DNA from: a virus
Lineage: Duplodnaviria; Caudoviricetes
DNA length: 32,231 nt
Virus record (IMG/VR): IMGVR_UViG_3300006879_000013
Span: 1 to 32,231 of that record
Direction: 5' to 3' (one strand)
Shown: piece by piece, positions 3,081 through 29,256 of the stretch
Layout of the letters: every line of letters starts with the position of its first letter
Numbering within the stretch: the stretch's first letter is position 1
Position numbers and translations under genes: made by a program
The notes under the pieces: generated by a model
Told to the model about the DNA's origin: nothing
Database searches by the model: none
What the model saw: the letters and a program-made list of their open reading frames with translations, nothing else

Positions 3081-3448
3081 CGACGAACCAATCGAGGCGA
3101 TGGGCGATGCAATCGAAATCGCCGCCGGCATCGACTGGAAAACGGCAGAGAACGCGGCCCACGCGGCCCTCGCCGCTGCCGAGGCGGCGGGATACCGGCT
3201 GGTGCCGGTGGAGCCGACAGCCGCGATGGTCACTGCCGGGGTCAGGCACGATGTGGTGCGCTGCGCTGACAGCAGCAGAGCCCGGCGACACGTACATCGA
3301 CGATGGGCTGCACTACCAAATGAGCGTGGTGCACGGCGTCATCGTTGCGCTACCGATGCCGGAGCATGTGGACCACCCGCAATGGTGGTGGACGGAGACT
3401 GCGCCGCCGGAGGCGGATAGGTGGGCGGTCAAGCCGAGGACCGCTTAA
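3073..3448 (+). pseudogene. Two-frame locus: N-terminal part in the 3073 frame, C-terminal part in the 3077 frame, switching near 3240
   Basis: The 3073 frame is protein-like up to GYRLVPVEPTAAMVTAG. The 3077 frame is protein-like only from SGTMWCAALTAAEPGDTYIDDGLHY onward. The switch falls at a GGGG run (3238-3241). Confidence 0.45.
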
Positions 3449-4649
3449 TCGGCACCACCTGGCCCGGCTCGCGCAGCCCATCAACAAAGTCTGCCCAGGC
3501 TTGCAGCATCGCCCGCCGCTCCGGCAGAAACTCGGCATGGTTGTAGGCCGCCGCCACTTTGTCGCGCGGCGCGTGGGCGAGCTGGCGCTCGATCACCAGC
3601 GGCGGGTAGCCGAGTTCGTGCAGGATGGTCGAGGCGGTGCCGCGGAAGCCGTGGCCGGATAGCCGCCCCGCATAGCCCATCCGCTCCAGCGCCCGGTTTA
3701 GCGTGGTGATGGTCATGCAGCGGGCCGGGTCGCGCAGGTTCGGGAACAGCAGCGGCCGGCCGCCGGTGAGGCTGTGCAGTTCGCGCAGCAGCGCCACTGC
3801 CTGGCGCGGCAGCGGCACCACGTGCAGCCGTCGCATCTTCATCCGTCCCGCCGGTATCCGCCACTCCGCACCGTCCAGGTCGAACTCTGCCCACTCGGCC
3901 TGGCGCAGCTCGCCCGGCCGCACGAACAGATATAGCAGCAGCCGCAGCGCGATCCGCGTGGTCGCATAGCCGCTGCTGTAGCCGTCCACCGCCGCAAGGA
4001 ACGCCGGGATCTCAGCACGGCTCAGCGTGCCATGGTGCACCACGGCCGGCCGCTCCAGTGCGCCCTTGAGCGCTGCCGCCGGGTCCGAGTCGGCGCGCAT
4101 GGTCGCCACCGCATAGCGGAAGATCGCCGAGCACCACTGGCGCAGGTTGAGCGCCACCACCTCGGCGCCCCGCTTGTGCACCTTCCTCAGCGCCTCCAGG
4201 AGCAGCCCGGCATTGCGCTCCACCTGCCGGATCGGCAGCGATCCGAGCTCCGGGAAGATGTCGGCCTCAAGCCCCCGCTCTACCTGTCGCTTGTAGTACG
4301 GCGTCCAGTTCTTTTCCTTCTCCGCGATCCACTCCCGCGCCACCGCTTCGAAGGTGGTGGCGTTGGCGTGCTGCTGCGCCAGCCGCTCAATCTTGCGCAC
4401 ATGAGCTGGATGCAACCCCTGCACCACCTGCGTGCGCGCCCACTCCCGCGCCTGGCGGGCATCGGCCAGCGACACCCGCGGGTACTCGCCCACCGCATAG
4501 ACGTTTTCCTTGCCGGCGATTCGATAGCGGTAGCGCCAGAGCCTAGCGCCGGAGGGCTGCACCTGCAGGTACAGGCCGCGGCCGTCGGTGAGCTTGACGG
4601 GCTTCGGGCCGGGCCTGGCTTGGCGGATCTTGGTATCGGTCAGGGCCAT
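3429..4649 (-). CDS. int: P4-family tyrosine integrase (406 aa)
   Basis: N-terminal arm-binding domain (MALTDTKIRQARPG..KLTDGRGLYLQV). Catalytic residues R (VRPGELR), K (RMKM), HxxR (HGFR), H (QLAH) and Y (AAYNHA). Start placed at ATG 4649 by family N-terminus. Confidence 0.95.
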   Translation of the reverse strand: MALTDTKIRQARPGPKPVKLTDGRGLYLQVQPSGARLWRYRYRIAGKENVYAVGEYPRVSLADARQAREWARTQVVQGLHPAHVRKIERLAQQHANATTFEAVAREWIAEKEKNWTPYYKRQVERGLEADIFPELGSLPIRQVERNAGLLLEALRKVHKRGAEVVALNLRQWCSAIFRYAVATMRADSDPAAALKGALERPAVVHHGTLSRAEIPAFLAAVDGYSSGYATTRIALRLLLYLFVRPGELRQAEWAEFDLDGAEWRIPAGRMKMRRLHVVPLPRQAVALLRELHSLTGGRPLLFPNLRDPARCMTITTLNRALERMGYAGRLSGHGFRGTASTILHELGYPPLVIERQLAHAPRDKVAAAYNHAEFLPERRAMLQAWADFVDGLREPGQVVPIKRSSA

Positions 4650-4840
4650 CAAAGCGGGTATCGGCCAGGGGAACCCCGCCAGGATGCCCGCTTTTTGCGG
4701 GGATGGCAACGCACGCCGATGGACGTAGGTGGATGCCTCGTGCTGCGTCGGGCCGCACCGGATAATACGGCGCGCTGTCCACTGCCGTGCGCGCCGATCC
4801 GCCGCGGTCCCCCATGCCGCTGATCGATCATCAGCAGCAT
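4649..4840 (-). CDS. Putative 63-aa leader ORF beginning with TrpG-like MLLMID, with its stop overlapping the integrase start
   Basis: GGAG RBS 6 nt before ATG 4840. TGA at 4651-4649 overlaps the int ATG at 4649-4647 (TGATG). Confidence 0.45.
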   Translation of the reverse strand: MLLMIDQRHGGPRRIGAHGSGQRAVLSGAARRSTRHPPTSIGVRCHPRKKRASWRGSPGRYPL

Positions 4841-4957
4841 ATAGCGCTCCAAAGCCGCGCCCTGCCTCGATTGGATACCTGGGTGCGCGGCGTGATGCCC
4901 GCTCTGATACCCGCTTTCGTTCAGACTGGAGGCGGACGCGGGCGCACAGCGGTGGAC
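4651..4957. other. attP site: core inverted repeat flanked by integrase arm-type sites
   Basis: Core ATGCCGCTGA (4814-4823) / 7-bp TCGATCA / TCAGCAGCAT (4831-4840) is a 9/10 inverted repeat. Arm-type repeats GATRCCCGCT occur at 4653-4662 (inverted), 4683-4692, 4894-4903 and 4906-4915. The region lies immediately 5' of int. Confidence 0.8.
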
Positions 4958-4966
4958 AGGCCGGAG

Positions 4967-4995
4967 ATTATCGAACGCCGTCGCCGTGGCGGCAA
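4967..4995 (-). promoter_or_regulatory. sigma70-like promoter pointing toward the att core and int
   Basis: Minus strand TTGCCG (4995-4990), 17-nt spacer, GATAAT (4972-4967). Confidence 0.6.
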
Positions 4996-5022
4996 TGGCG
5001 ACCTAGCGGCCCCCTGCGCGAG

Positions 5023-5445
5023 CTACTTGGCGACACCCCTGTTCTTCTCGTAGGTGCGCACGCCGGCATAGCCGAGATAGCCAGCAGTAAAGGTCCACCA
5101 CATTTCTTCCGGAATCGCCGCAAATCCCCGGCCGACATTGCCGAAAAACAGCTCCATCTGCGCCGGAAAGAACACGCCGATCAGTGGCGCGACGATCACC
5201 AGCGACAAGATCACGCCGTAGAAGACATACATGAACGACGGCCGGGCGCGGCTCGTCCAGGGGTCTGCGCTGCTGGCTTCGGCGAGTATCGCCGACATGC
5301 GCGTCTCCAGCTCCTTGAGCTCTCCCGTTTGCTGCATTGCCAGTAGCTCAAGCTCCGCCTTCGCCTGCTGCTCCGGATCTGGAAACAACCGACCGATAAG
5401 ACTCTTGCCGATCTCGAAGATACCGCCGATAAGTGCCGGATTCAT
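5023..5445 (-). CDS. Holin (3TM holin of the gene-transfer-agent-release type), 140 aa
   Basis: Start MNPALIGG at 5445 overlaps the endolysin stop. Motifs PDP..QAKA.LEL, AEA.S.D.WTSRARPSF.YV, hydrophobic segments and GYLGY.G.RT.EK. Confidence 0.85.
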   Translation of the reverse strand: MNPALIGGIFEIGKSLIGRLFPDPEQQAKAELELLAMQQTGELKELETRMSAILAEASSADPWTSRARPSFMYVFYGVILSLVIVAPLIGVFFPAQMELFFGNVGRGFAAIPEEMWWTFTAGYLGYAGVRTYEKNRGVAK

Positions 5446-5879
5446 GCTGCCTTCCCCCCTTGTTGAGACCACCAAGCCGCCACGTCGAAGCACGGGCAGG
5501 CCTTTTTCGGGTCGTAGTCGCGGTGGCCGCGGATCGCCGCACCCGGAAAGCGCCGGCTGTAGTAGCCGACCAGCGCCTCCAGTGCGGCCCACTGCGCGGC
5601 TGTGTAATTGCAGTCCGGTGTCTGCGCGCCGGCCCCGGCCAGCTCACCGCCCACCAGGCAGATACCGATGGAATCGTGGTTATGGCCGGCGACGTGGGCG
5701 CCTTGCTGCTCTATTGGCCGCCCCTCCTCGACCACGCCGTTGCGGCGAATGACGTGGTTGTAGCCGATGTCGGCCCAGCCGTTGCCGTCGACGTGCCAGC
5801 TGCGGATCTCGGCGGCGCCGATGTCCATGCCGGGCGGGGTGTAGGCCGCGTGGATGATGATTTTGTTGATGGTGCGCAT
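5442..5879 (-). CDS. Endolysin, T7-lysozyme-like N-acetylmuramoyl-L-alanine amidase (145 aa)
   Basis: IIIH, GW.DIGY..VIRR.G.VE.GR, GAHV.GHN..SIGICLVGG, GHRD and KACP.F carry the Zn ligands His/His/Cys and the catalytic Tyr. Confidence 0.93.
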   Translation of the reverse strand: MRTINKIIIHAAYTPPGMDIGAAEIRSWHVDGNGWADIGYNHVIRRNGVVEEGRPIEQQGAHVAGHNHDSIGICLVGGELAGAGAQTPDCNYTAAQWAALEALVGYYSRRFPGAAIRGHRDYDPKKACPCFDVAAWWSQQGGKAA

Positions 5880-8649: not shown

Positions 8650-11600
8650 CTATTGTTCGTCGCGCGACCGCCGGTACAGCAGGCCGTGGACGATATCGCC
8701 CGGCCCCTCCGGCTCGGTCTCGCCGCTGGTCAGGTCCCACAGGTAGTCGAGCGTGATGCGCACCTGCCCGGTCGGCAGCCGCAGCAGGTAGCCGCTGGAC
8801 TCCAGCAGGTCGAAGACCTGCTCGTCGCTCAGGTCGTCCTCGTACACCGCCTCGCCGGCCTGGATAGTGGTGCGGGTAATGCGGTTGATGGCGTCCAGCA
8901 CCGGGCTGAAGCGGGCATCGCGCAGCGAGCCGTCCAGCGCGTACGCCTCCAGGCCGTGGGCGATGTCGCGCAGAATCGGCACCGGGGTAGCGAGGCTGGC
9001 CACCGAGGTCACCGCCAGCCACTTGGCCCAGCAATCGGTATCGCCCGGCTCGCACTCCGGCCCGCGCGCCGCCAGCAGCTCGGAGATGACCGCCGGCAAC
9101 ATGGTGATCAGCGCAGCGCTGATGACCAGCTCCGGCGCGTAGCGCGCACCGCGCTGGCCGACCAGGTCGCCGGCCGAGCGCAACCGGCCGTACTGCGCCG
9201 CGAACGGGGTCAGGAACATGGTCAGCATCCGCATCACCCCGCGCCGCCGCTGCAGGGCGTTGAGGTCCTTGGCACCGCCGGCGCCCTGGGTGCGGCGCAC
9301 GGCGGCATCGCCGGCATGGATCGCCTGCGCCTCGGTCGCGCCCTGCGCCAGGGCGCCACGGTAGGCGGCCAGCCAGGCCGGAATGCTGACCAGCTTCTCG
9401 GTCATGACGATGCCGAAAAAGGCACCGCGCTCGATCTTGCGCCGCAGAATGCCGACCTTGCCGGACTTGATGCGGCGCAGCTCGTCGCGGATGTCGCGGT
9501 CGATGGTCTGGAAGCGGTGGCGCATCTCGCCGGAGCGCGCCACCACGAACTGATGGGCGGCCAGCGGGTTGCGCGCCACGCGGTTGATGGCGTCGAGGTA
9601 GTAGCGGCTGCCGTAGTGGCTGCGGATGTATTCGATCACGTTCGGCGCACCGGCGAACTGCGCCAGCATGGTGGTCGCCTTGTAGCCGAGCGCCACCAGC
9701 GTCACCCGCGAGCGGGCGCCTTCGATGGCGCGGTCGTAGCCGGTCAGGCTGTCGCCGGCGCTGGCCACGCGGTCGTTGGCGATGCCCTTGAGCCAGGGCA
9801 TGAACAGCCGCTCGTAGCGGTCGCCCAAGTGGTCCTGCAGGGCGGCGCGGATCTGCGGTTGCTGCAGCAGCCAGTTGGCGTCGATCAGGAACTCGCGGTG
9901 GGTGAGATCCTTGATGACGCCGGCCAGGTGCTTCTGCAGCACGTGATTGAGGTCGAGCAGCAGCGGCGCGGCAAAGCGGGTCCGGCCCTTGCGGTGGCTG
10001 CTCGGGCTGGTGGCCCGCGCATAGCCTTCTTCCACCAGCCCGGCCAGCGGCCCGCTCTCCTGCTGCAGGCCCTGCGTCGAGTGGCGCGGGTCGTACACCA
10101 GCGGGTAGTAACCGCCGGCCAGCTCCACTGTCTCGCCGCTGCGCAGGGTAATGGTGACCGGCCGCCGCTCGACCTTGTCCAGCGGCACCCCGGCCACCCG
10201 CTGCTGCAACTCGTTGAGCGGCTGCCACAGCGTGTCGACGGCGTCCCACGCCTGCTGCACGAACTCCAGGTCGGCCGCATCGAGCCGGCCGATCAGCGCC
10301 AGCACCTCGGCCTCGCGGCCCTGCCAGCCGAAGCCGCGCAGCATCTTGTCCCAGTTCGATTCGTTGCCGATGTTGAGCGCCAGGCTGATCACCGCGAACC
10401 GCGAGAACGGCTGCTCCGGCCGCAGGCTCGACTGGAAGGTGTCGGTCATGCGCACGCTGTCGCGCGTGAGCAAGCCGTCGATCAGCTGGCCGACCCGTTC
10501 GCCGACCTGGGCATGCATATCCAGCTCGGCGGTCTGCGCCGCGCTGGCCAGGTTGAACAGGTAATCGTGCCAGGGGCCGGTAGCACCGCCGTCCAGCCAC
10601 TCGACCAGCGTCTCGACCGGGATCATGTCGGCGTCGAACTCGCCGAGGCGGTCGGCAGCACGATCCAGCCAGCCTTTGAGAATATCCTCCTTGGGCGGCT
10701 TGCGTCGCTTGCGGGCCTCGGCCGCTTGGCTCACCAGCTCGGCCACCACCTGCTCGCGCTCGACCAGCTTCTCGCCGGCGCGCAGTTGGCGGGAGCGGCG
10801 GGCCAGTGTCTCGATTGAGCGGGCGGCGTCGTAGATGCCAGTCAGCTCGTCCAGGGTCAGCTCGCGGTAGTTGCGGCGGCTGGCCTCGTTGAACAGCGCC
10901 GGGTCGATGGCCGGCTCGAAGCCGGCGGCCAGCTGCTCCTGGTACCAGGCCAGCAGACTCGCCCGCTCGTCCAGATCCTTGAGCGGCACGCTGGCGAACT
11001 CGAAGCGCTCCAGCAGGGCGTCCAGCTGCTCCAGGTAGGCGATCCCGCCCTTGCCGATGCGCTCGCGCGCGACCGGCCTGGCCAGACCCTTGAGGTGCTT
11101 GACCATCTTGTCGCGGCGCTCTTGCGCCCGCACCGCCGCCAGGTACAGCTCGGTGTTGACCAGCTCGCGCCGCTTGGCGATCGCCGCCGCCTGCCAGTCG
11201 CCACGCCCCACCGCCGTCAGCGCCTCGCGCCCCGAGCGGCGGGCGGCCTGCAGGTAGCGGTGCGGCTGGAGCTCGCGCAGCCGGATCTGGCCGATACGGC
11301 CGTCGGCCATCTGCCGCACCACCGCCAAGGAGGGCAGCGCCTCGCGGATCTGCGCCACCCCCTCGCGCCGCGCCTGGGTCTGCTGCTGGCGCTCGGCCCG
11401 CACGAATGGGCTCACCTCGCGCTGCTTGCGCCTGAGCGCGCGCAGCTCGGCCAGCACGATCCGGCTGCGCTGGTCGCCGTGCACCGCCTCGCGGGCGGCG
11501 TCGGCAATGGTGCCGTCAAAACGCAGGTCGCCGTGCTCCTGGACCACGCGGGCGTCGGTCTCGGCCTCCAGCACGGCCCGCTTCGGCTGCAGGCTGGCCA

Positions 11601-14600
11601 GGGCATCCAGCAGGGCGTCGCCGCTGGCAAAGCCCAGCCGCTCGGCGGCCAGGTCCGGATGGATACCGCCCTCGCGGGCGTACAGGTAGGCGCTGCGGTG
11701 CTCCTGGTTGCGCGGCCCCGGCAACTGCCGCAGGAAGCTCTCGCCGTGGCTGGCGACGATGGCCGCCTTGTCCAGCTTGAACGGCTCCAGCCCGCCCGGC
11801 AGCGCGTCGCCACCCGGCTCCTTGCCGGTGGCCAACCACGCCAGCGCCCGGTACTCCGGCTGGGCATTGAGCTCCTGCTCGACCTGGTCGCGGATGGCGG
11901 CGCGGGCCTCCTTCCACCACTGCGCGCGCTCGCGCTGGTACTGCGCCATCAGTCGCTGCTGCAGCGTCTGGCGCGCCTGCTGGCTCGCTTCCGCCACCGT
12001 CTTGCGGTAGGTGGCAAACTCGGCCTCGGACATGCCGGCCGCCTCGGCGTCGGTGAACAAGGCCGCCACTTCGCCCTCGGCCTCGGCGGCGGCGATCTCC
12101 TGCTCGGTGGCCAGCAGCCGGTCCATCACCGCCCGCACTTCCGGGGTCAGATTGACCCGCAGCTCGGCGAGCGACTGGTACAGCGCCACCAGCCAAGCGC
12201 GGAAGCGAGCGAAGGCGGCGCGCAGCTCACTCGACGGCGCGATGGCGAACTCGGCCGTGTCCTCGCCGCGGAGGTAAGCCTCAAAGCCACGCGCCCAATA
12301 CTCGTGCATCTCGGTGACGATGCGGCTCTCCAGCGGACCCTGCGGCGCGCGCCAGCGCGCGGCGACCTGCCGGATCAACTCGGCCCCGCCGGCGGCCTCG
12401 ACTTCGGCGCGCAGCTCGGGCGTCATCAGGCTGTGGATATGCCCGGCCTGCTGCTGCCACCACGCCTGCACGGTGGCCATGTCCTGCTGCACCGTCTCGG
12501 CGATACCGGGGATTTGCGCGTCTTCGGCCAGCTCCTCCAGAAACAGATGGCCGGACTCGTGCAGAAAGGTGGAGAGGTTGGCGTCCTGCAGCAGCCGGAT
12601 GGTGGTGGCGTCGGCGCCGAAGGTGATCGAGCCGCGGGCAACGCGGCGCTGGCGCTGGTCCAGGGCGCCGTCCGACTGGAACAATACCCGCTCCTGGTCG
12701 GCCCGCGCTGCCTCGCCGATCACCCGCGCCCGATCGGCGTCGTCCCCAGCCTTGTAGGTGTGGGTGCGGCTGGGCTCGATGTTCTGCGCCAGCGCCGCCC
12801 GCGCCTTCGGGCTCAGGTTGTCCGGCACCACGGCCGCGCGGAACTCAGCCAGCGCCACGTCGCGTAGGATCTTGGCTTCGAAATACTCGGTCGGCAGCTG
12901 ACGCAGCTTCGCCAGGAACTCGGCGACCTGGCGCTGGACAGCCTCCGGCACGCCCTCCATCCCGTGCTGGGGCAGCGCCGCCGGCACACCCATGGAGGCG
13001 CTGTCTTCCAGCACACCGATCACGGCGTCGGCAAAACCGAACGATTCGCCGCGGTCGCTGTAGGCGGCCAGCGCCTCGCGAATGGCGTCGAACTCGGCGT
13101 CGATCTCGGCCTTGACTGTCTCGAACTGCTCGCGGCTGACCAGCCGGCCCTTCTCGGCGCGGATCTGCTTGAGGCTCTTAAAGCGCGGCGTAAAGTGCGC
13201 GCGCAGGCTGCCGACCCCGTAGTTGAACGACTCGCCGCCGCGCAGCTCCTTCTTGAGAATGTTGACCACGTTCTGCAGCGTGTGCGTTTTGTATCGCCGG
13301 TTGCCGGCGTGGGTGAAGCCCATAAAGAGCTTTTCCTTGGCGTCCAGCGACTGCATCAGGCTATGCACATGCTCCTCGAATGCCGCCCCCAGGTCGGCCG
13401 CGGCCAGCTGCGCCTCCAGCGCCTGCTTGGTGGCCCAGGGATCGAGCGACGGCGGCTCACCGATCTGCTGCAGCTCGCCGAGGATGTCGTTGACCGCGCT
13501 GCGCCGGGCCACCTCGCCGGCCCGCCCCTCGGCCTGCAGTGCCGCCACCCACTTGGCTACCTCGGTATCGGCCTCCCAGCCGGGCAGGCTCTGCAGGTCC
13601 GCCAGGTACGAGGCCACTGCCCGCTCGACAAAAGCCGGGTCGTCCAGCGACACCTGCCGCCCCTCGGGACCGAACCAACGCTCCAGGCCGGCCTCGCGCT
13701 CCGACGGAACCCGCGGCGGTCGGTGCGCTAGATCGGGCGCAATGCCGTTGCGCTGCAGGAAGTCGGCCAGCACCGCGCGGCTGTTTGCCAGCAGATCGAG
13801 GCCCTTGTCCTCGATCTGGTCCTCGGTCAGCGAGTTGTCTTCGGTCAGCGCGATGGCGTCGGCCAGCTGCTCGCGCAGCGCGCGGAGCTTGGCGCCGCTC
13901 ACCTCGTACACCACGCCGGGGTAGCGCGGGCTGTAGATGTCGGCGCCGAACACCTGGGTGCGAGCGTAGCCGCTGGGGTCGGCCATCTCGACCGGACCGA
14001 GCAGCGTGATCTCGCCGAAATTGACAAGCGGCTGGTCGACCGTGGTGATGGCCAATGACGGTACCGCCAGCCCGCCCATGCGGTCGGCGTGCAACAGGTT
14101 GCCGGCAGTCAGGTTGTGCTGGGCGATCAGGTCGCGGGTGGTGCCGTCATTGGCCGGCCGGCTCGCCATCTCCTGGCCGTTGAAGACGACGATGGCCTCG
14201 GGCGGCGGGATGTCCTGGGTACCCTCCGGCGCCAGGCCGCGGCGCTCGCCCTCGGTCAGCGTCTGCCGGGCCTGCACGTTGCGGGCCTCGATCTCGCCGG
14301 CCAGTCGCCGATAGGCCTGGAACGCGCCTTCCGGGTCGGTCTCCTGGGTCGCCTCGATGGCCTCGCTGCGGGCATCAGCGATCTGCGCCCCCAGCTCGGC
14401 CAGCGCGGCCGCCAGGTCGTCGGGGCCGAGGTCTTGTGGCGGGCTCTCGGCCAGCTCGGTGAGCATGCGCTGCAGCGACTGCATGCGCTCCAGGGCGCTG
14501 TCGCGGACCTGGCTTGCCGCCCGCTGGATGCGATCGGGGCTGCCGCCGATGGCAAAGCCCTCAACGGTCTGGATAGCGTGCTGGATCTCGTGCAGCAGCA

Positions 14601-17538
14601 CGCCGAGATAACGCCCCTGGTCCTCGGCGCTCAGGCTGTACTGGTCGGGCAACGTGACCGTGCGCGAACGCGGCTGGTAACTGGCCTGCAGCCGGGTCGT
14701 GTCGGGATCGACGCGCACCCGGATGTGACTCAGCTGCGGGTAGGCGGCGAACAGCCTGGGGTGGTGCAGCACGTGGCCGAGCGGCACGCCGCGCACCTTG
14801 GCCTCCTCGGTCCAGTCTGTGAAATAGTCGGCGTTGGTGCTGGTGCTCTCCACTTGCTCGCTGGCTGGGTCCCAGCCGCGCAGCCGTGCCTGGCTGTCGT
14901 CGATCTCGAACCGCCACAGGCCGTCCATGCCCTGGAACCAGCCAGTGGTCTGCCGCACCTGCTCGGGGTCAGCGCCAGCTGCCAGGAACTCCTGCGCTGC
15001 CGCCAGCGCATATTGGTCGGCGGTCTCGGCGCTGGGGCCGGCGAACTGCTGAAAGGTCTGCGCCGCCTCCGATGCCGGCCGCTCCTCTGGCAGCGCGCCG
15101 GTGTCGAGCAGCTGCCGGATAGCGGCATTGTCGACATCGGCCAGGTTGATGCCCTGCTGGCCGAGGTAGCGCTCCAGTTCTTCCGCTGCCAGCCGCAGAT
15201 CGGCTTGCTGCTGGTTGGTAAGCTCCGGCGCAAACACCGGCTCGCCGCTCGCCTCGCGGTCGACGGCCTCCAGCAGCAGGTCGAGATTGCGCTCGGGCAG
15301 ATAGCCGGCCTCGTGGGCCAGCTCGGCGGCGTGGTCGAGGGTGAGGCCGCCCGGTCGCACGATGCGCTGCTGGCCGGGCTGCAGGCCCACGTCGAGGTCG
15401 CGCGCGGCCAGCTCGCCGCCGTCGTCCTGCAGGCCGTGCGCGCGCAGAAACTCCAGCAGGCTCGGACCGAACGCATCCTGCTGGCTGGGCAGGTCGCCGG
15501 CCCGCAGCCGGTCCAGCAGCCGGTCGAGCTGGTCACGGGTTTCGCGCCGCTGCAGGATCTCCGGCGCCGGTGCGCGGATGCGCAGCCGGTGCTGGCTGTA
15601 CAGCTCGAGCGGGTCCATGCCGCGCAGCAGGCCGCGGGTGCGGTAGCGGGCCGCCATCAGCGCGGCGTTCTGCTCGGCCTCGTCGCGCGGCATGATGCCG
15701 GCGAGCTGGCCGAGGATGTCCTGGCGCACCTGTTCGACGCTCTGCGCCAGCGCGGAATCGGCGCCGGCCGCCTCCTGGATGCCTTCGGCCAGGGTCTGCG
15801 CCCAGCCATCGGCGGCGGCGTTGGTGGGGTCGAGCGGGTCGAGCCGCGCCTGGTCGATGAACGCCTGGTGATCCGCAGTGGCGGCGATCTTGGCGACGTA
15901 GCTGCCCATCGGTACGGCCAAGTCGGCGCCGGTGGCCACCGCTTCGTCGTAGGCGAGCGCATCGCCCAGCACCTCGATGGCCTGCTCGCGCGGGTCCAGG
16001 CCCTGGGCGGCGTAGTGCTCCTGCCAGAAGCTGACCGGCACCAGCAGGTCGGCAATGCCGCCCTGCTCGCCCAGCCGCTGCACCAGTTCGCGCAGACGCG
16101 CCGGGTCGCGCTCGCCGAGTTTCACCTCGGGCGCGATCTCGCCCAGGGTCTGCATCACGGCGCGCGTGCGGCGGGCGCTGGCCAGCCGCGCCATGCGCCG
16201 GCGCAGCGGGGCTTGGGCGGCGCGCGAGCTCAGGATCTCTGGGCCGGAGCCGAACACCTCGGCCACGCCCTCCAGCAGCACCTCGGCGGCGTTGATCTCG
16301 CCGTGCGCCAACAGCTGACCAGCCGCCTCGCCGGCCGCGCCCAGAGTGCCCTGCGCCGGCAGCTGGGCGCCGATGTTAATCAGCTCGCGACTGGTGGCCG
16401 ACAGCTCGCGCCCACCCACCAGCCGTGGCGCCAGGATCTTGCCGGCGACACCGGCCGAGACGGTATCGAACAGCGCCACCGGCACGCCCTTGGCGATGGC
16501 CGTTTGCTGCAAGGCAGCGCGCTGCTCGGGGTCGCGCAGCACCGCCAGCACTGCCTCCTCGTCGGCGATGTCGACGCCCTGCTCGCTTAAGCCCTCCATG
16601 AGGGTGTTGCCGTACTCCAGCATCAGCGAGTTAAGCCCCAGCGCGCCGGGGCCGGCCAGCGGCATCGCCAGCAGGCCGGGAATCACCGCCACCGCGCTTT
16701 CGACGCCGGTCTGCCAGATGATGCTGGGCTCGTCGACCACGGTGCGCAGCATCTCCAGGGCACTGCCGGACTCCAGCGCCGCGGCCAGCCGCGGGTTCTG
16801 CGGCAGCGCCTGCTGACTGGCGGCCGCTTCGCCGGCCGAGGCCAGCAACTGCGCCAGCTGCTGCTCGTATTTCTGGCGGATATCGGCGCGCTTGGCCGGG
16901 TCCTCGGCGTAGGTGTTCCAGTACAGGTTGAACAGCGGGTCGGGGTCGCTCGGCGGCACCAGCGCCATCACCGCCTGCATGTCGCCGGCCGCGAGCAGCG
17001 GCTCCATGCGGTCGAGCAGGGCCATGCGGTCGAGCATGTTGGCGGCCGCACCCATCGACGCGCCGCCCTTGAGCAGGCTCGCGCCGCGCTTGGCCGGGGT
17101 CGCCACGTTGCGGGCCAGGAACCCCTGCTGGTCGTAGGCGCTGCCGACCGGCACTGCCTTGCCGGTGGTGAGCGCATCGTGCAGACGCTGCAGGCCGTCC
17201 AAGTCGTCCTGCGCCAGTGCGGCGTTGGTGGGGTCCTCGGTCAGCCACTGGCTCAGCTGCTGGTAGCGGTCGAGCAGGGCGTCGTAGTCGGTGTTCTCGC
17301 GCTGCTGGCGCTTGGCCACCAGCTCGTAATTGCGCTCCACCACCTCGACCGGCAGGCGGGATTGCTCGGCCAAGCGCGCCGCCTTGGCGCGCCGCTCGGG
17401 GTCGACCTCGGCCGCCACCTGCAGCGCGCTCTTGAGCCGCTGGCTGTCCTGCTGCTGCAGGTCGCCAAGCAGCGCGTCGTAGTCGTTGCCGGCAGCGGGC
17501 GCGTCGCCCAGCAGCAGCGCGTCGTACTCATTGGCCAT
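8650..17538 (-). CDS. Giant internal virion / DNA-ejection polyvalent protein (~2962 aa) with an LPD23-like domain and two HExxH motifs
   Basis: Start MANEYD at 17538 overlaps the upstream gene. It is the third ejection gene, before the tail fibres. TGWFQG.DG.WRFEIDDS...L.HP.LF.AYP.L...LLHEIQHAIQ..EGFA.GG (HEIQH at 14578-14592). ANLSTFLHESGH (12547-12561) is followed by HEYWARGFEAYL. Confidence 0.88.
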   Translation of the reverse strand: MANEYDALLLGDAPAAGNDYDALLGDLQQQDSQRLKSALQVAAEVDPERRAKAARLAEQSRLPVEVVERNYELVAKRQQRENTDYDALLDRYQQLSQWLTEDPTNAALAQDDLDGLQRLHDALTTGKAVPVGSAYDQQGFLARNVATPAKRGASLLKGGASMGAAANMLDRMALLDRMEPLLAAGDMQAVMALVPPSDPDPLFNLYWNTYAEDPAKRADIRQKYEQQLAQLLASAGEAAASQQALPQNPRLAAALESGSALEMLRTVVDEPSIIWQTGVESAVAVIPGLLAMPLAGPGALGLNSLMLEYGNTLMEGLSEQGVDIADEEAVLAVLRDPEQRAALQQTAIAKGVPVALFDTVSAGVAGKILAPRLVGGRELSATSRELINIGAQLPAQGTLGAAGEAAGQLLAHGEINAAEVLLEGVAEVFGSGPEILSSRAAQAPLRRRMARLASARRTRAVMQTLGEIAPEVKLGERDPARLRELVQRLGEQGGIADLLVPVSFWQEHYAAQGLDPREQAIEVLGDALAYDEAVATGADLAVPMGSYVAKIAATADHQAFIDQARLDPLDPTNAAADGWAQTLAEGIQEAAGADSALAQSVEQVRQDILGQLAGIMPRDEAEQNAALMAARYRTRGLLRGMDPLELYSQHRLRIRAPAPEILQRRETRDQLDRLLDRLRAGDLPSQQDAFGPSLLEFLRAHGLQDDGGELAARDLDVGLQPGQQRIVRPGGLTLDHAAELAHEAGYLPERNLDLLLEAVDREASGEPVFAPELTNQQQADLRLAAEELERYLGQQGINLADVDNAAIRQLLDTGALPEERPASEAAQTFQQFAGPSAETADQYALAAAQEFLAAGADPEQVRQTTGWFQGMDGLWRFEIDDSQARLRGWDPASEQVESTSTNADYFTDWTEEAKVRGVPLGHVLHHPRLFAAYPQLSHIRVRVDPDTTRLQASYQPRSRTVTLPDQYSLSAEDQGRYLGVLLHEIQHAIQTVEGFAIGGSPDRIQRAASQVRDSALERMQSLQRMLTELAESPPQDLGPDDLAAALAELGAQIADARSEAIEATQETDPEGAFQAYRRLAGEIEARNVQARQTLTEGERRGLAPEGTQDIPPPEAIVVFNGQEMASRPANDGTTRDLIAQHNLTAGNLLHADRMGGLAVPSLAITTVDQPLVNFGEITLLGPVEMADPSGYARTQVFGADIYSPRYPGVVYEVSGAKLRALREQLADAIALTEDNSLTEDQIEDKGLDLLANSRAVLADFLQRNGIAPDLAHRPPRVPSEREAGLERWFGPEGRQVSLDDPAFVERAVASYLADLQSLPGWEADTEVAKWVAALQAEGRAGEVARRSAVNDILGELQQIGEPPSLDPWATKQALEAQLAAADLGAAFEEHVHSLMQSLDAKEKLFMGFTHAGNRRYKTHTLQNVVNILKKELRGGESFNYGVGSLRAHFTPRFKSLKQIRAEKGRLVSREQFETVKAEIDAEFDAIREALAAYSDRGESFGFADAVIGVLEDSASMGVPAALPQHGMEGVPEAVQRQVAEFLAKLRQLPTEYFEAKILRDVALAEFRAAVVPDNLSPKARAALAQNIEPSRTHTYKAGDDADRARVIGEAARADQERVLFQSDGALDQRQRRVARGSITFGADATTIRLLQDANLSTFLHESGHLFLEELAEDAQIPGIAETVQQDMATVQAWWQQQAGHIHSLMTPELRAEVEAAGGAELIRQVAARWRAPQGPLESRIVTEMHEYWARGFEAYLRGEDTAEFAIAPSSELRAAFARFRAWLVALYQSLAELRVNLTPEVRAVMDRLLATEQEIAAAEAEGEVAALFTDAEAAGMSEAEFATYRKTVAEASQQARQTLQQRLMAQYQRERAQWWKEARAAIRDQVEQELNAQPEYRALAWLATGKEPGGDALPGGLEPFKLDKAAIVASHGESFLRQLPGPRNQEHRSAYLYAREGGIHPDLAAERLGFASGDALLDALASLQPKRAVLEAETDARVVQEHGDLRFDGTIADAAREAVHGDQRSRIVLAELRALRRKQREVSPFVRAERQQQTQARREGVAQIREALPSLAVVRQMADGRIGQIRLRELQPHRYLQAARRSGREALTAVGRGDWQAAAIAKRRELVNTELYLAAVRAQERRDKMVKHLKGLARPVARERIGKGGIAYLEQLDALLERFEFASVPLKDLDERASLLAWYQEQLAAGFEPAIDPALFNEASRRNYRELTLDELTGIYDAARSIETLARRSRQLRAGEKLVEREQVVAELVSQAAEARKRRKPPKEDILKGWLDRAADRLGEFDADMIPVETLVEWLDGGATGPWHDYLFNLASAAQTAELDMHAQVGERVGQLIDGLLTRDSVRMTDTFQSSLRPEQPFSRFAVISLALNIGNESNWDKMLRGFGWQGREAEVLALIGRLDAADLEFVQQAWDAVDTLWQPLNELQQRVAGVPLDKVERRPVTITLRSGETVELAGGYYPLVYDPRHSTQGLQQESGPLAGLVEEGYARATSPSSHRKGRTRFAAPLLLDLNHVLQKHLAGVIKDLTHREFLIDANWLLQQPQIRAALQDHLGDRYERLFMPWLKGIANDRVASAGDSLTGYDRAIEGARSRVTLVALGYKATTMLAQFAGAPNVIEYIRSHYGSRYYLDAINRVARNPLAAHQFVVARSGEMRHRFQTIDRDIRDELRRIKSGKVGILRRKIERGAFFGIVMTEKLVSIPAWLAAYRGALAQGATEAQAIHAGDAAVRRTQGAGGAKDLNALQRRRGVMRMLTMFLTPFAAQYGRLRSAGDLVGQRGARYAPELVISAALITMLPAVISELLAARGPECEPGDTDCWAKWLAVTSVASLATPVPILRDIAHGLEAYALDGSLRDARFSPVLDAINRITRTTIQAGEAVYEDDLSDEQVFDLLESSGYLLRLPTGQVRITLDYLWDLTSGETEPEGPGDIVHGLLYRRSRDEQ

Positions 17539-19225
17539 GCGGGCGCACCCTCTCCAGCTTGAGCCGGTACAGCTCGACAATGGCGGCGTCGGTGATCTCC
17601 CGGCCGTGGCGGGTCAGCGTGTCGCGGATCTTGCGCACCTCGGCGCTCGGGATGGCGGAGACATCGAGCGCCAGGTCTTCATCCGGCTGCAGCTGATAGA
17701 CCCGCTTGCGGTCGTCGAACAGCCAGCCGCTACCCGGCACCGTGCCCTGCACCAGCAGATGGTCGACGATCCCCTGCACCTCGTCGTTGCGCAGCGCCCG
17801 CCCCAGCTCCTCCTGCCGGCGCATGACCTGCTCGTCGACCTGGCGGCGGAAGCTGGCCACCTGCACGGCATCGGAGCTCTCGCGCTTGCTCGGCTTCGGC
17901 GTGGTGTCGACGCCGATGGCGGTCAGCGCTTCGTCGACGATCTGCCGGGTGGTGCGGTAGCCGTCGAGCGCCTTGTCGGCCTGGCTGCGGTTACCGCCGC
18001 GCAAGGTGGCCTGCAGCCCGGCCAGCTCCTTGAACTCGACGTCGGCCAGCTCGCCGCGGTACTGCAGCAGGTTGATGCGGGCAAAGTCGGCCTGCGTCTC
18101 GCGGCTGCTGGCCAGCTGCTTCAAGTCGTAATAGCGGGTCCAGTCGGTGACCGGCTCCACCCCTTCGCGCACGGCGCGGGCATGCGCCTTGAGCCCGGCC
18201 TGCAGGTTGGCCGGCAGGGTGCCGGCCTGTGCCGCCACGGCGTCGTAGTCGCCGCCGCTGTCGTTGAGCGCCTGCGTGAGCTGGTCGGTCAGCTGGTCCT
18301 GCTCGGCCGCCTCGGCCGCCTGCTGATCGCTGAAGAACTGGCGGATGCGGGTCTTGGTGGCATCGGCCACTTTGGTGTCTTCGATCTTGGCGGCCGCCGC
18401 CAGCGCCGCGCCCCGGTCGTCGGTGTGCTGGGCGAGGATAGCGTCGGCCTGGCGGCGGCTCTCGCCGGCCAGGCTGCCGGCCTCGACCGCCCGGTCCAGC
18501 TTGGCCAGCGCGGTGCCGTCGATGGCGGCGCGGGTATCGGTCAGGTATTCGCTGGCGGCGATGTCGTCGCCGCGGGCCAGCAGGCGGTCGATCACGCCCG
18601 CGTGCAACTCGCTCTGCACCTGCCCCAGCCGCTGCTCGACCCACTCGGCCGGCTTGCTGGTGCGGGCGGCATGGTCGCGCAGAATGGCCTGCTGGCGGGC
18701 CAGGCTGAGCGCAATCCGCTCCGGCTGGTCGATATTGGTCAGCGCCTCGCTGGTGGCGGTGGCCAGCGCGGCCTCGGTGCGCTCGTCGTCGAAGCGCAGC
18801 CGCTCGCGAGCGACGTGCAGCTGCAGCGCCCGGTCCATGGTCTGTCGGCGCTGGCTGGCCAGCCGGCGGAATGCCAGCTGCAGGTCGGGGTCGGACAGCT
18901 CCTGTGTGAGCTCCCCCACCTTCTCGTCGAACGCCGGCAGCACCTGCTCGGGCAGGCCGAAGGCGTTGCGGCCGCGCGATTCCTGGATGGCGACCTCGGT
19001 GTCGACCTGGAAGCGGGCCAGCTGCTCGTCGAGGTCCAGCAGCCGCAGCTGGTTGGCCTGGCGCCGCTCGTCGTCGGCCACGCGCGCCACCGCCTGGCCG
19101 ACCCGGCTCAGCCCTTCGCCGATGCCGGCGCCGGCCGCGGTCGGGCTGACCCGCGCACCGATGCGGGCGCTGGGCATGGCGGCCGGGTCGACGCGCCGGC
19201 CGGTGGTTAATGGCACGGTCGGCAT
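17528..19225 (-). CDS. Internal virion (ejection) protein, helical, 565 aa
   Basis: MPTVP N-terminus, Ala/Gln-rich helical composition, position between the small and giant ejection genes, coupled start and stop. Confidence 0.75.
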   Translation of the reverse strand: MPTVPLTTGRRVDPAAMPSARIGARVSPTAAGAGIGEGLSRVGQAVARVADDERRQANQLRLLDLDEQLARFQVDTEVAIQESRGRNAFGLPEQVLPAFDEKVGELTQELSDPDLQLAFRRLASQRRQTMDRALQLHVARERLRFDDERTEAALATATSEALTNIDQPERIALSLARQQAILRDHAARTSKPAEWVEQRLGQVQSELHAGVIDRLLARGDDIAASEYLTDTRAAIDGTALAKLDRAVEAGSLAGESRRQADAILAQHTDDRGAALAAAAKIEDTKVADATKTRIRQFFSDQQAAEAAEQDQLTDQLTQALNDSGGDYDAVAAQAGTLPANLQAGLKAHARAVREGVEPVTDWTRYYDLKQLASSRETQADFARINLLQYRGELADVEFKELAGLQATLRGGNRSQADKALDGYRTTRQIVDEALTAIGVDTTPKPSKRESSDAVQVASFRRQVDEQVMRRQEELGRALRNDEVQGIVDHLLVQGTVPGSGWLFDDRKRVYQLQPDEDLALDVSAIPSAEVRKIRDTLTRHGREITDAAIVELYRLKLERVRPHGQ

Positions 19226-26645: not shown

Positions 26646-28378
26646 GTCGGCGCTCCGGCGCTGGCCAGCAGTCGGGTCAACGCGTTATCGCCGCTGGTGT
26701 CGGCCTCGGACAGCAGCTTGGCGCCCTGCGCCCCCTGCTGCAGGGCCGCCATCTGCTCGGCCTGCTGCTGCGCCTGCGCCCGCTGCTCGCGGATGGCGGC
26801 GGCCTCCTCGTCGGAGCGCACCAGCTCCGGGTCGACGCCGGTGATATCGGCGTAGACGTCGATGGCCTTGTCGATGTTGACCTTGTCGAGCGCGGTCGGG
26901 TCGACGCCGGCCAGGTTGCCGACGTAGCCGCTGAAGCGCTCAATGCCGCCGATCGCTACCAGCTTCTGCGCCTGCGCCATGATCGAGATGTACTCGACCC
27001 GCAGCTCGCGGCCCTCCAGCTCCTGCGGCGGCGGCGGCACCAGGTTGCCGTCGATGTCCTGCGCGAGCATGAGCCGGAACGCCAGGTCGATCAGCGGGTC
27101 CAGCAGCTCGTCGTTCAGCCGCTCCAGCACCGGGCCGAGCATCAAGAGCTTTTCCTCGTGCCGCTCATTGATCTCGCGGGCGGTGATCTGGCGGCGATCC
27201 GACATCGCCATCATCAGGAACAGGTCGGCGAAGTACGCGCGGTGGATGCGCTGCTCGTGCGCCTCGATGTCGAGCATCAGCTCCTGCACGCGCGGGTTGA
27301 CCTCGTAGATCGGCCGCAGCCCCTGCAGGCCCTCGCGCACGTCGACATAGGTAATGTCGTCGGGCAGGGTGCTGACCTTGGCGTTGCGCAGCGCGCCCGG
27401 GCCCATCAGGGGCGGCCGCACCATCTTCTCGATGGCCTGCGCCTTGCGCCGCTCCAGGGTCTGCAGGCTCATGGCGTCGCCCAGCGCCATCTCGCCGGGG
27501 TAGCGACTGCCGTGCACGTCCTCGCCGATCACTTCCCAGCGCGGCACCAGCACCGGGAACTCGTCGTAGCCGGAGCGGCGCAGCAGCTGCTGCGCGTCGT
27601 CGACGTTGGCGCGCTCGAAGTGGTAGCTGGCGTAGCGCTTGTGGCGGGCGTCGGCGCGGCGCGGGTCGAACTCGGGGTTCGGGCAGATGGCGTGCACCAC
27701 CTCGTGCAGAGCGGTGTAATTGCCGCTGTCGTACTGGTGGCGCACGGTCGTGCTGATGTTCGACCAGTCGGCGCGGCCGGTGCGCTCGTCGAGCCGGCCG
27801 TAGCGGTCGACGATCTGCCGCACGGTCAGCATGTGCGGGCGGATGAAGGTGTCGATCCGGCCGTCGCCGTTGGCCGCCACCCGGTAGCTGCCGACCGGGA
27901 AGTTGAACACCCGCAGCCCGTCGCGCAGATCCTCCTGCACCGCGACCGCGCCGATGCCGAAGTCGCCGATGTCGCCGTACAGGCTAGGCAGGCCGTTGTA
28001 GAGGTTGGAGCGCAGGAACAGCGTGCGCATGTTCTGCGCCACCACGTGCAGCCAGCGCTTGACCGGCGCGTAGGCGTCCAGCGTCGGGTCGCCGGTACCG
28101 AGCCGGAACCACGGCCGCGCCGGGCTGGTAATACCGGAGTGCATGCCGGCGCGGAAGATGCGACTGGCCACGGTGGCGCTGTTGTTGACGATCTTCTGCC
28201 GGCGCTTCTTGCCGCGGTTGTGCTCGCTCAGGCTGAAGCGGGCGGCGCCGGGCGCGATGAACTGCTCGACGTCCTGCCACTGGCCCCTCCAGTTCGCCAG
28301 GTCCAGGTCGAGCGACGCCAGCAGCGAGAGCATGCGCTGGCGCGGCGACTCGTCCGCTTGGCGGCGCTCAGCGGCCAT
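26642..28378 (-). CDS. Portal (head-tail connector) protein, 578 aa
   Basis: GITSPARPWFRL, SN.Y..L...Y.D...FG, VPRW.......G..PG..ALGD...LQ, TA.EI.ER.EEKL.MLGPVLERL..ELL.PLI and VEYIS.MAQAQK. Confidence 0.95.
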   Translation of the reverse strand: MAAERRQADESPRQRMLSLLASLDLDLANWRGQWQDVEQFIAPGAARFSLSEHNRGKKRRQKIVNNSATVASRIFRAGMHSGITSPARPWFRLGTGDPTLDAYAPVKRWLHVVAQNMRTLFLRSNLYNGLPSLYGDIGDFGIGAVAVQEDLRDGLRVFNFPVGSYRVAANGDGRIDTFIRPHMLTVRQIVDRYGRLDERTGRADWSNISTTVRHQYDSGNYTALHEVVHAICPNPEFDPRRADARHKRYASYHFERANVDDAQQLLRRSGYDEFPVLVPRWEVIGEDVHGSRYPGEMALGDAMSLQTLERRKAQAIEKMVRPPLMGPGALRNAKVSTLPDDITYVDVREGLQGLRPIYEVNPRVQELMLDIEAHEQRIHRAYFADLFLMMAMSDRRQITAREINERHEEKLLMLGPVLERLNDELLDPLIDLAFRLMLAQDIDGNLVPPPPQELEGRELRVEYISIMAQAQKLVAIGGIERFSGYVGNLAGVDPTALDKVNIDKAIDVYADITGVDPELVRSDEEAAAIREQRAQAQQQAEQMAALQQGAQGAKLLSEADTSGDNALTRLLASAGAPT

Positions 28379-28955
28379 CGGCGCCTCCGTCCAGGTTGCG
28401 CAGGGCGCGGTAGGTCGGCGCCACCGCGTCGACGATCAGGTGCAGCCGCGGCACGGCCGAGCCGTTGCGGACGGTGTGCTCGCGCTTGTGGTTGAACCAC
28501 CAGGCGCTGCCCGGCGCCATGTGTACGGTCTCAGCACCGACCGTGAACGCGTTACCGGGCTCACTGGCCAGCGCGATATGGAAGCGGTCGTAGTAATCGG
28601 CGTAGGCGCCTTCGTCGATGTGCGGCGTGATCTCGCCCTGCGGCTGCAGGTTGACCAGCAGCACGCGGCCCAGCGCCTCCGCGTCGACCGCTGCCAGCAG
28701 CGCGTCGATCAGCGGCTGCGCAGCGGGCAGCGCTGCCAGGGCCGGGTAGTCGACCGCCTCGGTGGAGAAGAACACCGCCGCCGGGTCGACCGCCTCGGTG
28801 CACCAGCGCAGAAAGATGCACTCGGTATCGCGGTGGGCGCTGCCCGGGAATGCCTGGCGGAACGTCAGCTCGCGCCACAGCGCCGGCTGCGCGGCCAGTT
28901 CGGCCAGCAGCGGGCCGGTATCCAGCCCGGCAGCGACTTGACGCAGATAGCGCAC
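28368..28955 (-). CDS. Aspartyl/asparaginyl beta-hydroxylase-like 2OG-Fe(II) oxygenase, ~195 aa
   Basis: Likely GTG start at 28955, just after the upstream stop. LGRVLLVNL.P.GEI.PHxD (PHID), RFHI.L, M.PG.AWWFN....H.V.N and R.HLIVD give the HxD...H triad plus the 2OG-binding Arg. Confidence 0.85.
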   Translation of the reverse strand: MRYLRQVAAGLDTGPLLAELAAQPALWRELTFRQAFPGSAHRDTECIFLRWCTEAVDPAAVFFSTEAVDYPALAALPAAQPLIDALLAAVDAEALGRVLLVNLQPQGEITPHIDEGAYADYYDRFHIALASEPGNAFTVGAETVHMAPGSAWWFNHKREHTVRNGSAVPRLHLIVDAVAPTYRALRNLDGGADGR

Positions 28956-28956
28956 C

Positions 28957-29256
28957 CTAGTCCCCCAGCAGGGTCTTGCGCGCAGTCGGCGCCGCACCCT
29001 GCGCGCCGAGCGGGCCAGTCAGGATGGTGTCGCTGCGGGAGACGCCGGCAGCACCACGCCGGCGCTGGCGGGCAGCCGCCGAGTCGGCATCGGTGGGCGC
29101 CTGCTCGCGCGCCTTGCGCTGCTCGGCGGCCTGCTGCTCGGCCAGCTCGGCCTGCCGCTTGGCTTCTTCCTCGGCGTTCTTGCGTGCCTCGCGGGTCTCG
29201 TACGCGCCATACCCCGCGACGGCACCCACCACCGCAATTGCTGCTGACGTTGCCAT
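28957..29256 (-). CDS. Small virion protein of the pre-portal type (T7 gp7.3-like position), 99 aa
   Basis: Hydrophobic N-terminus, charged helix and C-terminal TILTG..G......KTLLG motif; TAATG coupling to the GNAT gene. Confidence 0.75.
   Translation of the reverse strand: MATSAAIAVVGAVAGYGAYETREARKNAEEEAKRQAELAEQQAAEQRKAREQAPTDADSAAARQRRRGAAGVSRSDTILTGPLGAQGAAPTARKTLLGD

Follow-up and report, generated by a model that had tools for sequence, protein, structure and literature searches.

A temperate phage attachment site that probably carries a replacement start for the host gene trpG

Why would the attachment site of a temperate phage begin like a gene for tryptophan synthesis? We considered this question for a viral genome of 32,231 nucleotides (IMG/VR record IMGVR_UViG_3300006879_000013), all of which we analysed and which we call the window. 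On its minus strand, positions 4840-4823 read M-L-L-M-I-D, and an earlier note on this DNA had taken these to be the first six codons of a host gene, trpG or pabA, into which the phage integrates. We now put the probability at about 0.9 that the window's integrase recombines a 7-bp overlap at 4830-4824 with nucleotides 11-17 of host trpG. Integration would strand the host's own start and rebuild trpG from a start codon, a ribosome-binding site and a predicted promoter that the phage supplies.

The window is the whole record of a BPP-1-like temperate phage (its capsid protein is 59.5% identical to that of BPP-1). Its virion gene families include Bbp16, GP7 and head-tail proteins, and we found no tRNA or tmRNA gene in the window. 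The site lies between holin and amidase genes and the gene for a P4-type integrase. Because phage DNA flanks it on both sides, this is the unintegrated form, attP: positions 4650-5000 are the attP of an unintegrated temperate phage, and 4814-4840 are its core. After integration, attL denotes the junction next to the integrase gene (int) and attR the junction that leads into intact trpG. The features are as follows.

3429..4649, minus strand: intact gene for a P4-type tyrosine integrase of 406 amino acids (PF13356, PF22022 and PF00589; phrog_1)
4654..4691, minus strand: right arm-type sites (tandem pair at 4691-4683 and 4679-4671, inverted copy at 4662-4654), which adjoin the start of int and go to attL
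4814..4823, minus strand: right core-type half-site, a 9/10 inverted repeat of the left half, which departs from trpG
4824..4830, minus strand: 7-bp overlap (strand-exchange) region, trpG nucleotides 11-17 in codons 4-6, the same in attL and attR in 23/25 pairs from relatives
4831..4840, minus strand: left core-type half-site, replacement trpG codons 1-3 and the first base of codon 4, kept in 68 distinct sites from relatives
4847..4850, minus strand: Shine-Dalgarno sequence GGAG, 6 nucleotides upstream of the replacement ATG
4894..4914, minus strand: left tandem arm-type sites (4914-4906 and 4902-4894), at -74 and -62 from the ATG, which go to attR
4967..4995, minus strand: predicted sigma-70-like promoter, which points through the core and whose -10 ends 126 nucleotides before the ATG
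5023..5879, minus strand: holin and amidase genes, phage genes expected to abut attR and trpG once the phage has integrated

Where the earlier note had named features of the site, we found them in place: the six codons, GGAG at 4850-4847, the letters TTGCCG-17-GATAAT at 4995-4967, the 9/10 inverted repeat (4840-4831 and 4823-4814) around the spacer at 4830-4824, and the arm-type repeats on both sides of the core (pairs at 4914/4902 and 4691/4679, with an inverted copy at 4662). The inverted symmetry of the core halves is also present in the consensus of the 68 relative sites, and the layout of the right arm recurs upstream of related integrases. The window's right half-site is 8/10 identical to the attL half-site of genomes G674 and G804. 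A degenerate pattern for the first 17 nucleotides of trpG matches once in the window, as compared to 2e-5 matches expected from base composition (a rough figure, as the pattern was written post hoc).

The evidence that trpG is the target comes from relatives whose junctions can be seen, with integrases that are 54-66% identical to the window's. We searched 29 integrase-bearing genomes with TIGR00566; 24 scored above the cut-off and 23 of the loci include the gene start. In 20 of these 23 genomes the element's arm pair stands ahead of intact trpG, at -72 to -84, as against none of 37 control trpG leaders from a class-wide sample (40 single-match genomes taken from 196 that matched, less three matches that were not trpG). 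Because the arm words were derived from the same sequences, it is the comparison with the controls that carries the weight. At 21 of the 23 loci, trpD follows trpG (the chosen open reading frame, or ORF, had no match at the other two), so the target is the trpG of trpGD(C) and not pabA.

Both ends of the element lie on one contig in 14 cases, 7-210 kb in size (G002, G009, G011, G017, G018, G019, G029, G031, G032, G674, G719, G804, G875 and G876). The relatives show the two junctions that had been predicted for the phage. In attL, host upstream sequence runs through the first 17 nucleotides of trpG into the element's arm and int; in attR, the element's other arm and a new ribosome-binding site and ATG lead into intact trpG. 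Of 27 attL loci checked, 15 have the end of trpE no more than 3 kb upstream. The reading frame of the stranded trpG stub closes within 6-33 codons in all 68 relatives. Lysis-type genes, as judged from their translations, abut attR in G031, G032 and L152, as expected for the window phage.

To map the crossover, we compared 25 attL/attR pairs (L038 was excluded). Nucleotides 11-17 of trpG are identical between the two ends in 23 pairs, which places the overlap in relatives on the same 7 bp that the earlier note had proposed. Wobble position 15, inside the overlap, is identical in 24/25 pairs, and three pairs have rare variants there at both ends. Wobble positions 6, 9 and 18, outside the overlap, are identical in 15/25, 19/25 and 11/24. 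Only one pair differs at nucleotide 10, so the left limit of the overlap depends on this pair together with the 7-bp geometry. One of the pairs (L011/L138) comes from an unpublished genome, G010; the conclusions are unchanged without it.

One natural trio includes the free site: attP L152 matches the attR of G876 at 196/200 positions on the left side, and its attL at 192/200 on the right side, with only 50 and 55 matches on the opposite sides. Empty sites give the same picture. Upstream of trpG, G005 has the same sequence as is found upstream of attL L006, and the attL of G674 keeps the 10-nucleotide trpE-trpG spacer of uninterrupted relatives. At six attL loci (L012, L081, L082, L084, L424 and L433), remains of an earlier element's arm or box lie upstream, indicating serial or tandem reuse of the site. 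We also tried duplicate matches to the trpG start as a census and abandoned this: in 11 double-match genomes (both copies were available for 10), most second copies are unrelated, and only G071 has an attL arm and only G310 a (weak) attR pair.

From what holds for this integrase family and from the mapped overlap, we propose strand exchange across trpG nucleotides 11-17 by Int attached to both its arm-type and its core-type sites. attL would then consist of the host leader, six codons, an early stop, the right arm and int, and attR of the lysis genes, promoter, left arm, Shine-Dalgarno sequence, ATG and trpG-trpD. In this way trpGD(C) would stay expressed though severed from trpE. If the window phage acts as its relatives do and its promoter fires, the rebuilt operon would likely be constitutive, with expression unregulated by tryptophan. 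TrpG may also serve folate synthesis in some of these hosts. The earlier note had suggested that lysogeny rewires biosynthesis. The uncoupling of trpGD(C) from trpE agrees with that, but in the Pseudomonas members an attenuator-type leader, described below, would preserve control.

How common is this target among related integrases? We collected relatives from genomes (the best 80 of 213), viral contigs (41) and metagenomes (the best 80 of 310). Annotated phages yielded no named relative of the attP. Our counts are limited to loci with at least 230 nucleotides upstream and include near-duplicates, and one record (L152) was found by pattern. A trpG-like start lies upstream of int in 68 of 81 loci with at least 53% integrase identity, in 3 of 9 at 50-53%, and in 3 of 67 below 50%, where tRNA, tmRNA, ychF and surE targets take over. 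The distance from this start to int is 150-260 nucleotides (about 930 in three loci). In a FastTree phylogeny of 150 rows with a midpoint root, all 75 rows labelled as trpG, including the window, fall in one clade of 101 rows (Shimodaira-Hasegawa support of 96). Users of tRNA, tmRNA or ychF lie outside this clade, and users of surE and modB are nested inside it.

The earlier note had stated that P4-type integrases usually target tRNA or tmRNA genes or the 3' ends of genes. This holds for the neighbouring branches, which use the 3' ends of tRNA, tmRNA and ychF, but not for the trpG clade, which uses the 5' ends of the protein-coding genes trpG, surE and modB. The surE sisters (4/4) and modB sisters (1/1, and phage YeP4) have a matching arm pair and a replacement start. 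The surE branch is from enterobacteria (L453-L456 with L029, L032, L034 and L037) and the modB branch is from Yersinia (L457 with L030 and L153, and the attP of YeP4); both have the arm and box layout of the trpG members. The available part of the main text of the YeP4 paper mentions neither attB nor attP.

The window integrase itself has arm-binding, core-binding and catalytic domains, and the motif residues R244, K271, H333, R336, H359 and Y369 are present. In this family, these positions have catalytic roles. It is 42.6% identical to P4 Int, and its score against PRK09692 is 259.8, below the cut-off of 434.

The elements also supply the sequence just ahead of the new ATG. In 19 of 27 leaders, a box resembling a site for integration host factor (IHF) lies at -21 or -22, with the Shine-Dalgarno sequence within the box's spacer (a putative binding site). 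For instance, in L122-L145 and L160, about 21 nucleotides before the trpG ATG, the Shine-Dalgarno sequence is inside the box's 4-nucleotide spacer. A single stretch may thereby serve both recombination and translation.

Among the Pseudomonas members, the sequence of attP shows something further: a paralogue of the attenuator leader peptide of trpE. In P. aeruginosa, according to the available part of PMC13434334, attenuator leaders ending in RWRWRA precede trpE (trpL1) and trpGDC (trpL2); the second, whose tryptophans are residues 18 and 20, works in strain PA14. A trp-type leader is present in five Pseudomonas relatives (L152, G876, G674, G875 and G719), and in L152 the RWRWR-type leader ORF lies within the free attP. 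It is absent from the attP of the window phage. Outside Pseudomonas, leader ORFs with a Trp pair are not enriched in attR (3/24, compared to 7/37 in the background). At one non-Pseudomonas attR (L133, in G013), a short ORF 158 nucleotides before trpG likewise encodes RWRW close to its terminus, which may be a second capture of an attenuator.

The arrangement around active elements indicates where the leader came from. In G876 and G674, the element inserted directly behind trpE and yet the leader is at attR, so the element brought it. G804 brought no leader. Both junctions of G875 and G719 hold a leader, the old one being at attL and the new one at attR, so a resident leader can be reused as the bacterial attachment site, attB. 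Three further viral records show leader, arms and trpG. An element-borne attenuator would keep trpGDC responsive to tryptophan. The leaders have no match in Rfam at the gathering score, and folds of three leaders, each taken singly, show no clear shared terminator.

We then looked at Pseudomonas genomes more widely. The arm plus trpG-start pattern matches 17 of 251 Pseudomonadaceae genomes. It also matches 20 of 201 genomes in the family of G001 (about half of these are convincing by profile score), where attR-type leaders were found at loci L314-L333. We surveyed the first 30 genomes of at least 5.8 Mb from the pattern-search list. In 28 of the 30 (two were unparsed), a short ORF whose product terminates in RWRWR and one further residue lies before trpE. 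Fifteen of the genomes have trpE and trpG side by side and lack the IHF-like box (4-6 mismatches), and one genome (G674) holds an active element. In the remaining 14 the two genes are split apart, with a gap of 16-18 kb in ten and of 0.9-2.5 kb in four, and all 14 have the IHF-like box at -21 or -22 (2-3 mismatches). Each of the ten larger splits has a PF11112 gene beside trpE, and the two that are annotated contain clusters for headless contractile tails (tailocins). An RWRWR-type leader ORF precedes trpG in 15/15 non-abutting genomes and in 16 of the 17 pattern-matched Pseudomonadaceae genomes.

The resident trpG leader resembles a decayed attR in all 14 split genomes and in one P. aeruginosa record. 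Before trpG in this record, OQ658366.1 (L452; host label P. aeruginosa), lies a leader of 22 codons, of which codons 18 and 20 encode Trp, and the box at -21 has no mismatch. The record was deposited as a phage genome, consists of a headless tail cluster and host trpG and trpD, and wrongly annotates trpG as carbamoyl-phosphate synthase and trpD as nucleoside phosphorylase. Over 220 nucleotides, the 11 resident leaders that we tested align to active attR with z of 21-36, compared to 0.6-2.6 for abutting genomes and up to 6.2 for random leaders.

On balance, we lean slightly towards a history in which the trpG-targeting clade, to which the window phage belongs, was the source of the 5' region that controls trpGDC in several lineages of Pseudomonas, P. 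aeruginosa among them. A copy of the trpE attenuator would have entered attP, insertion would have split the ancestral operon, and decay of the element would have left attR, with its attenuator, its IHF-like box around the Shine-Dalgarno sequence and its worn arm sites, as the leader of trpG. The gap between trpE and trpG would then be a former and reusable attachment site, which would explain how unrelated tailocins came to be domesticated there. Of the parts of this history, the element origin of the resident leader is probable. We are less sure of the link to tailocins, whether through an ancestor that used the integrase or through later filling of the opened gap.

Another explanation, which we consider somewhat unlikely, is that the host duplicated its trpE attenuator to form the resident leader and that phages copied it, in which case the leader is not a fossil attR and has no bearing on tailocins. 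The attenuator, of which trpE has one too, does account for most of the 220-nucleotide alignment score. Arm sites in the resident leaders are below recognition by profile (median of -27.6 bits), no relic attL was found within 400 nucleotides after trpE in any of the 14 split genomes, and these genomes represent about two lineages. Also, the leader types of the elements track those of their hosts, as would fit exchange in either direction. On the other hand, all 14 split genomes have the IHF-like box (the P. aeruginosa record with 0 mismatches), none of the 15 uninterrupted operons and none of the 6 trpE leaders tested has it, and it is a fixed feature of attP in elements from α- to γ-Proteobacteria and in the surE and modB sisters. 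Furthermore, the proximal 100 nucleotides alone beat all 100 shuffles in 8/11 resident leaders but in 0/5 leaders from abutting genomes and 0/6 trpE leaders (the z of random leaders goes up to 1.8, apart from one at 4.9). For this stretch the P. aeruginosa record gives z of 3.7, which is not above all shuffles. Two more points tell against the fossil attR and its link to tailocins: four of the split genomes have no tailocin there, and we found no trpG-type prophage with a pyocin-like tail.

Two stronger proposals did not hold. A trpG-type prophage as the direct ancestor of R tailocins was rejected, as both G876 and G875 are prophages that encode heads and have no contractile-tail match. All that G876 has in common with the tailocin of G711 is a holin (39.7%), a 119-amino-acid ORF (40.8%) and a piece of a fibre. 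Widespread domestication of attR across the γ-Proteobacteria was also rejected: among random trpG leaders, the arm pair is found in 0/37 and the IHF-like box in 1/37.

What drives the rebuilt trpG? TTGCCG-17-GATAAT is the sole promoter-like site in 4600-5100 (shuffled sequences have a mean of 0.1, standard deviation 0.4), and we predict that it is the promoter. A sigma-70-like site whose -10 ends 100-150 nucleotides before the ATG occurs in 15 of 24 attP or attR leaders. The same test gives 3.4 ± 1.7 in shuffles (maximum 8) and 1/24 on the other strand. It is unlikely, in our view, that the target and ribosome-binding site are right and that 4995-4967 is a chance match, with transcription of trpG starting at some other phage promoter or reading through from the lysis genes. 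The site has only 9/12 consensus matches, 9 of the 24 leaders from relatives, and Pseudomonas leaders, have no match at that distance, many of the positive leaders are from closely related betaproteobacterial elements, and a positive result also comes up in 5 of 37 random trpG leaders. But related attR leaders have the same -10 hexamer as the window at a similar distance (120-135 nucleotides, versus 126), and by eye, the surE and modB sisters have a similar -10-like word at about that distance. Since lysogens keep their late genes silent, trpG would need a dedicated promoter.

Could the site be a true attP that in practice acts on a different gene whose beginning is similar, such as pabA or a secondary site? 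The likeness to trpG would then be inherited from the clade. Targets do switch within the clade, to surE in 4/4 and to modB in 1/1 genomes examined, and some members sit at unrelated sequence. However, the window's first 17 nucleotides are the commonest trpG start, and its overlap is present in 53 of the 68 sites. Members that have switched carry the start of the new target in attP, as in YeP4, and trpD comes after the target in 21/23 loci. We consider this alternative very improbable.

Some observations do weigh against integration of the window phage at trpG. The nearest integrases are only 62-66% identical to the window's, and we found neither a host nor a prophage form nor a junction read for this phage. 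The IHF-like box is absent from the window (5 mismatches), which has a plain GGAG instead. Among the relatives, 13 of the 81 close loci have no trpG start by the rule that we used, and some of these are plainly elsewhere; the users of surE and modB are nested within the clade; 3 of the 23 genomes have trpG without the arm pair; and 2 of the 25 pairs differ within the overlap.

Lastly, a chance match or an assembly chimera with host DNA is hardly credible: one DNA sequencing run, possibly the source data, gave a single contig with mean word depth of 8.85 and no integration joints, but that contig spans 4400-5300 without differences, arms lie on both sides in the family's layout, and the window departs from trpG exactly at nucleotide 18. 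The position of the site is conserved in relatives, which refutes this idea.

The window has other features near the site and beyond it. A 29-bp imperfect inverted repeat (79%), at 4775-4803 and 4931-4959, has arms that flank the core off-centre; these are perhaps sites for accessory proteins. On the minus strand, the frame from the attP ATG runs for 63 codons (4649-4840), and its stop overlaps the ATG of int. We rejected translational coupling to int: the frame is not kept in the 68/68 relatives, where it closes within 6-33 codons, and so we treated it as due to chance. No recombination directionality factor was identified among three ORFs that converge on int, which matched nothing in Pfam or NCBIfam and gave one weak PHROG match at most; shorter ORFs were outside the scan. 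Farther away, 8650-17580 (minus strand) encodes a polyvalent protein of 2976 amino acids with LPD22, LPD23 and a PBECR5 nuclease-like domain. Between the terminase and portal genes, at 28368-29987 (minus strand), are genes for an Asp/Asn beta-hydroxylase-like protein and a GNAT acetyltransferase.

The elements at trpG carry diverse cargo, including prophages (G875 and G876), defence islands and a phenol-catabolic island. Five islands (G019:C55:17700-39540, G018:C11:2150-29620, G029:C1:2620080-2649050, G017:C1:70750-103160 and G002:C31:5865-52460) have, across them, genes for SMODS with patatin, type I restriction, defence-like kinase/methylase, a three-integrase module with reverse transcriptase, or phenol hydroxylase. 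In G674:C1:590560-800910 and G804:C1:595998-734112, attL and attR are 210 kb and 138 kb apart, so these are very large elements or stacked insertions.

The start of trpG is thus a conserved landing site for prophages, defence islands and catabolic islands in α-, β- and γ-Proteobacteria. It is missed by island finders that centre on tRNA genes, and it is a possible neutral integration site for engineering. If our account of Pseudomonas is true, a phage attachment site carries an amino-acid attenuator, and a core metabolic leader of P. aeruginosa (the trpL2 region) was delivered by phage. What favours integration between trpE and trpG is described as unclear in the available part of Hockett et al. 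2015 (PMC4542187); the question they raise would become directly testable.

We found no trpG-targeting integrase in the full-text literature that we searched; supplements and island databases, which might list trpG, were outside this search. None is described in PMC13626063 or PMC12884075 (neither mentions trpG), or in the available parts of PMC7344871, bioRxiv 2023.04.17.536465, PMC4686621, PMC6548840, PMC13624779, PMC4684702 and PMC4542187. The part of PMC4686621 available to us does describe trpG as a boundary of the Xanthomonas hrp cluster and, in a non-pathogenic strain, of a restriction island. PMC13624779 lists P. aeruginosa genomes that have 31-68 kb of additional DNA close to the pyocin cluster. 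The new points here are that the attP of Pseudomonas members holds a copied trpE attenuator leader and that Pseudomonas genomes likely contain a fossil attR. The 22-codon leader of OQ658366.1 has its tryptophans at the positions of W18 and W20 in P. aeruginosa trpL2 (PMC13434334, available part). In contrast to trpL1 and trpL2, the paralogue described here is in a free phage attP and in the attR of active elements, and the window phage has none; the words "phage," "pyocin," and "duplicat" are absent from the main text of PMC13434334, as far as available.

The virion genes of the window phage are like those of BPP-1, and the integrase of BPP-1 is not among the 25 best integrase matches listed. 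Like P4 and IntS, the trpG clade has a three-domain integrase, a core flanked by tandem arm repeats, and int adjoining attL, but its target is not the 3' end of a tRNA or tmRNA gene. The SXT/R391 integrative and conjugative elements at prfC likewise replace the 5' end of their target with a new promoter and first codons; they differ in being conjugative and in their target. That attP carries a replacement piece of the target is a general rule (PMC10111431, in the part available).

The closest parallel is the dusA-associated integrases of islands and prophages (Farrugia et al. 2015, PMC4482086, available part). In both systems, element sequence replaces the 5' end of a housekeeping gene, the old 5' end is stranded at the outer boundary, putative -10 and -35 sequences are supplied, and the elements include both islands and prophages. 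The main text of PMC4482086, as far as available, does not mention trpG. The systems differ in that the target here is trpG, followed by trpD, rather than dusA or dusB, and only six codons are replaced. Also, the window integrase is P4-type with an Arm-DNA-bind_3 domain (as judged by domain match, and not by direct comparison with the dusA integrases), the targeted gene is internal to an operon, and some members bring an attenuator-type leader. trpG is a new target for the known strategy of 5'-end replacement.
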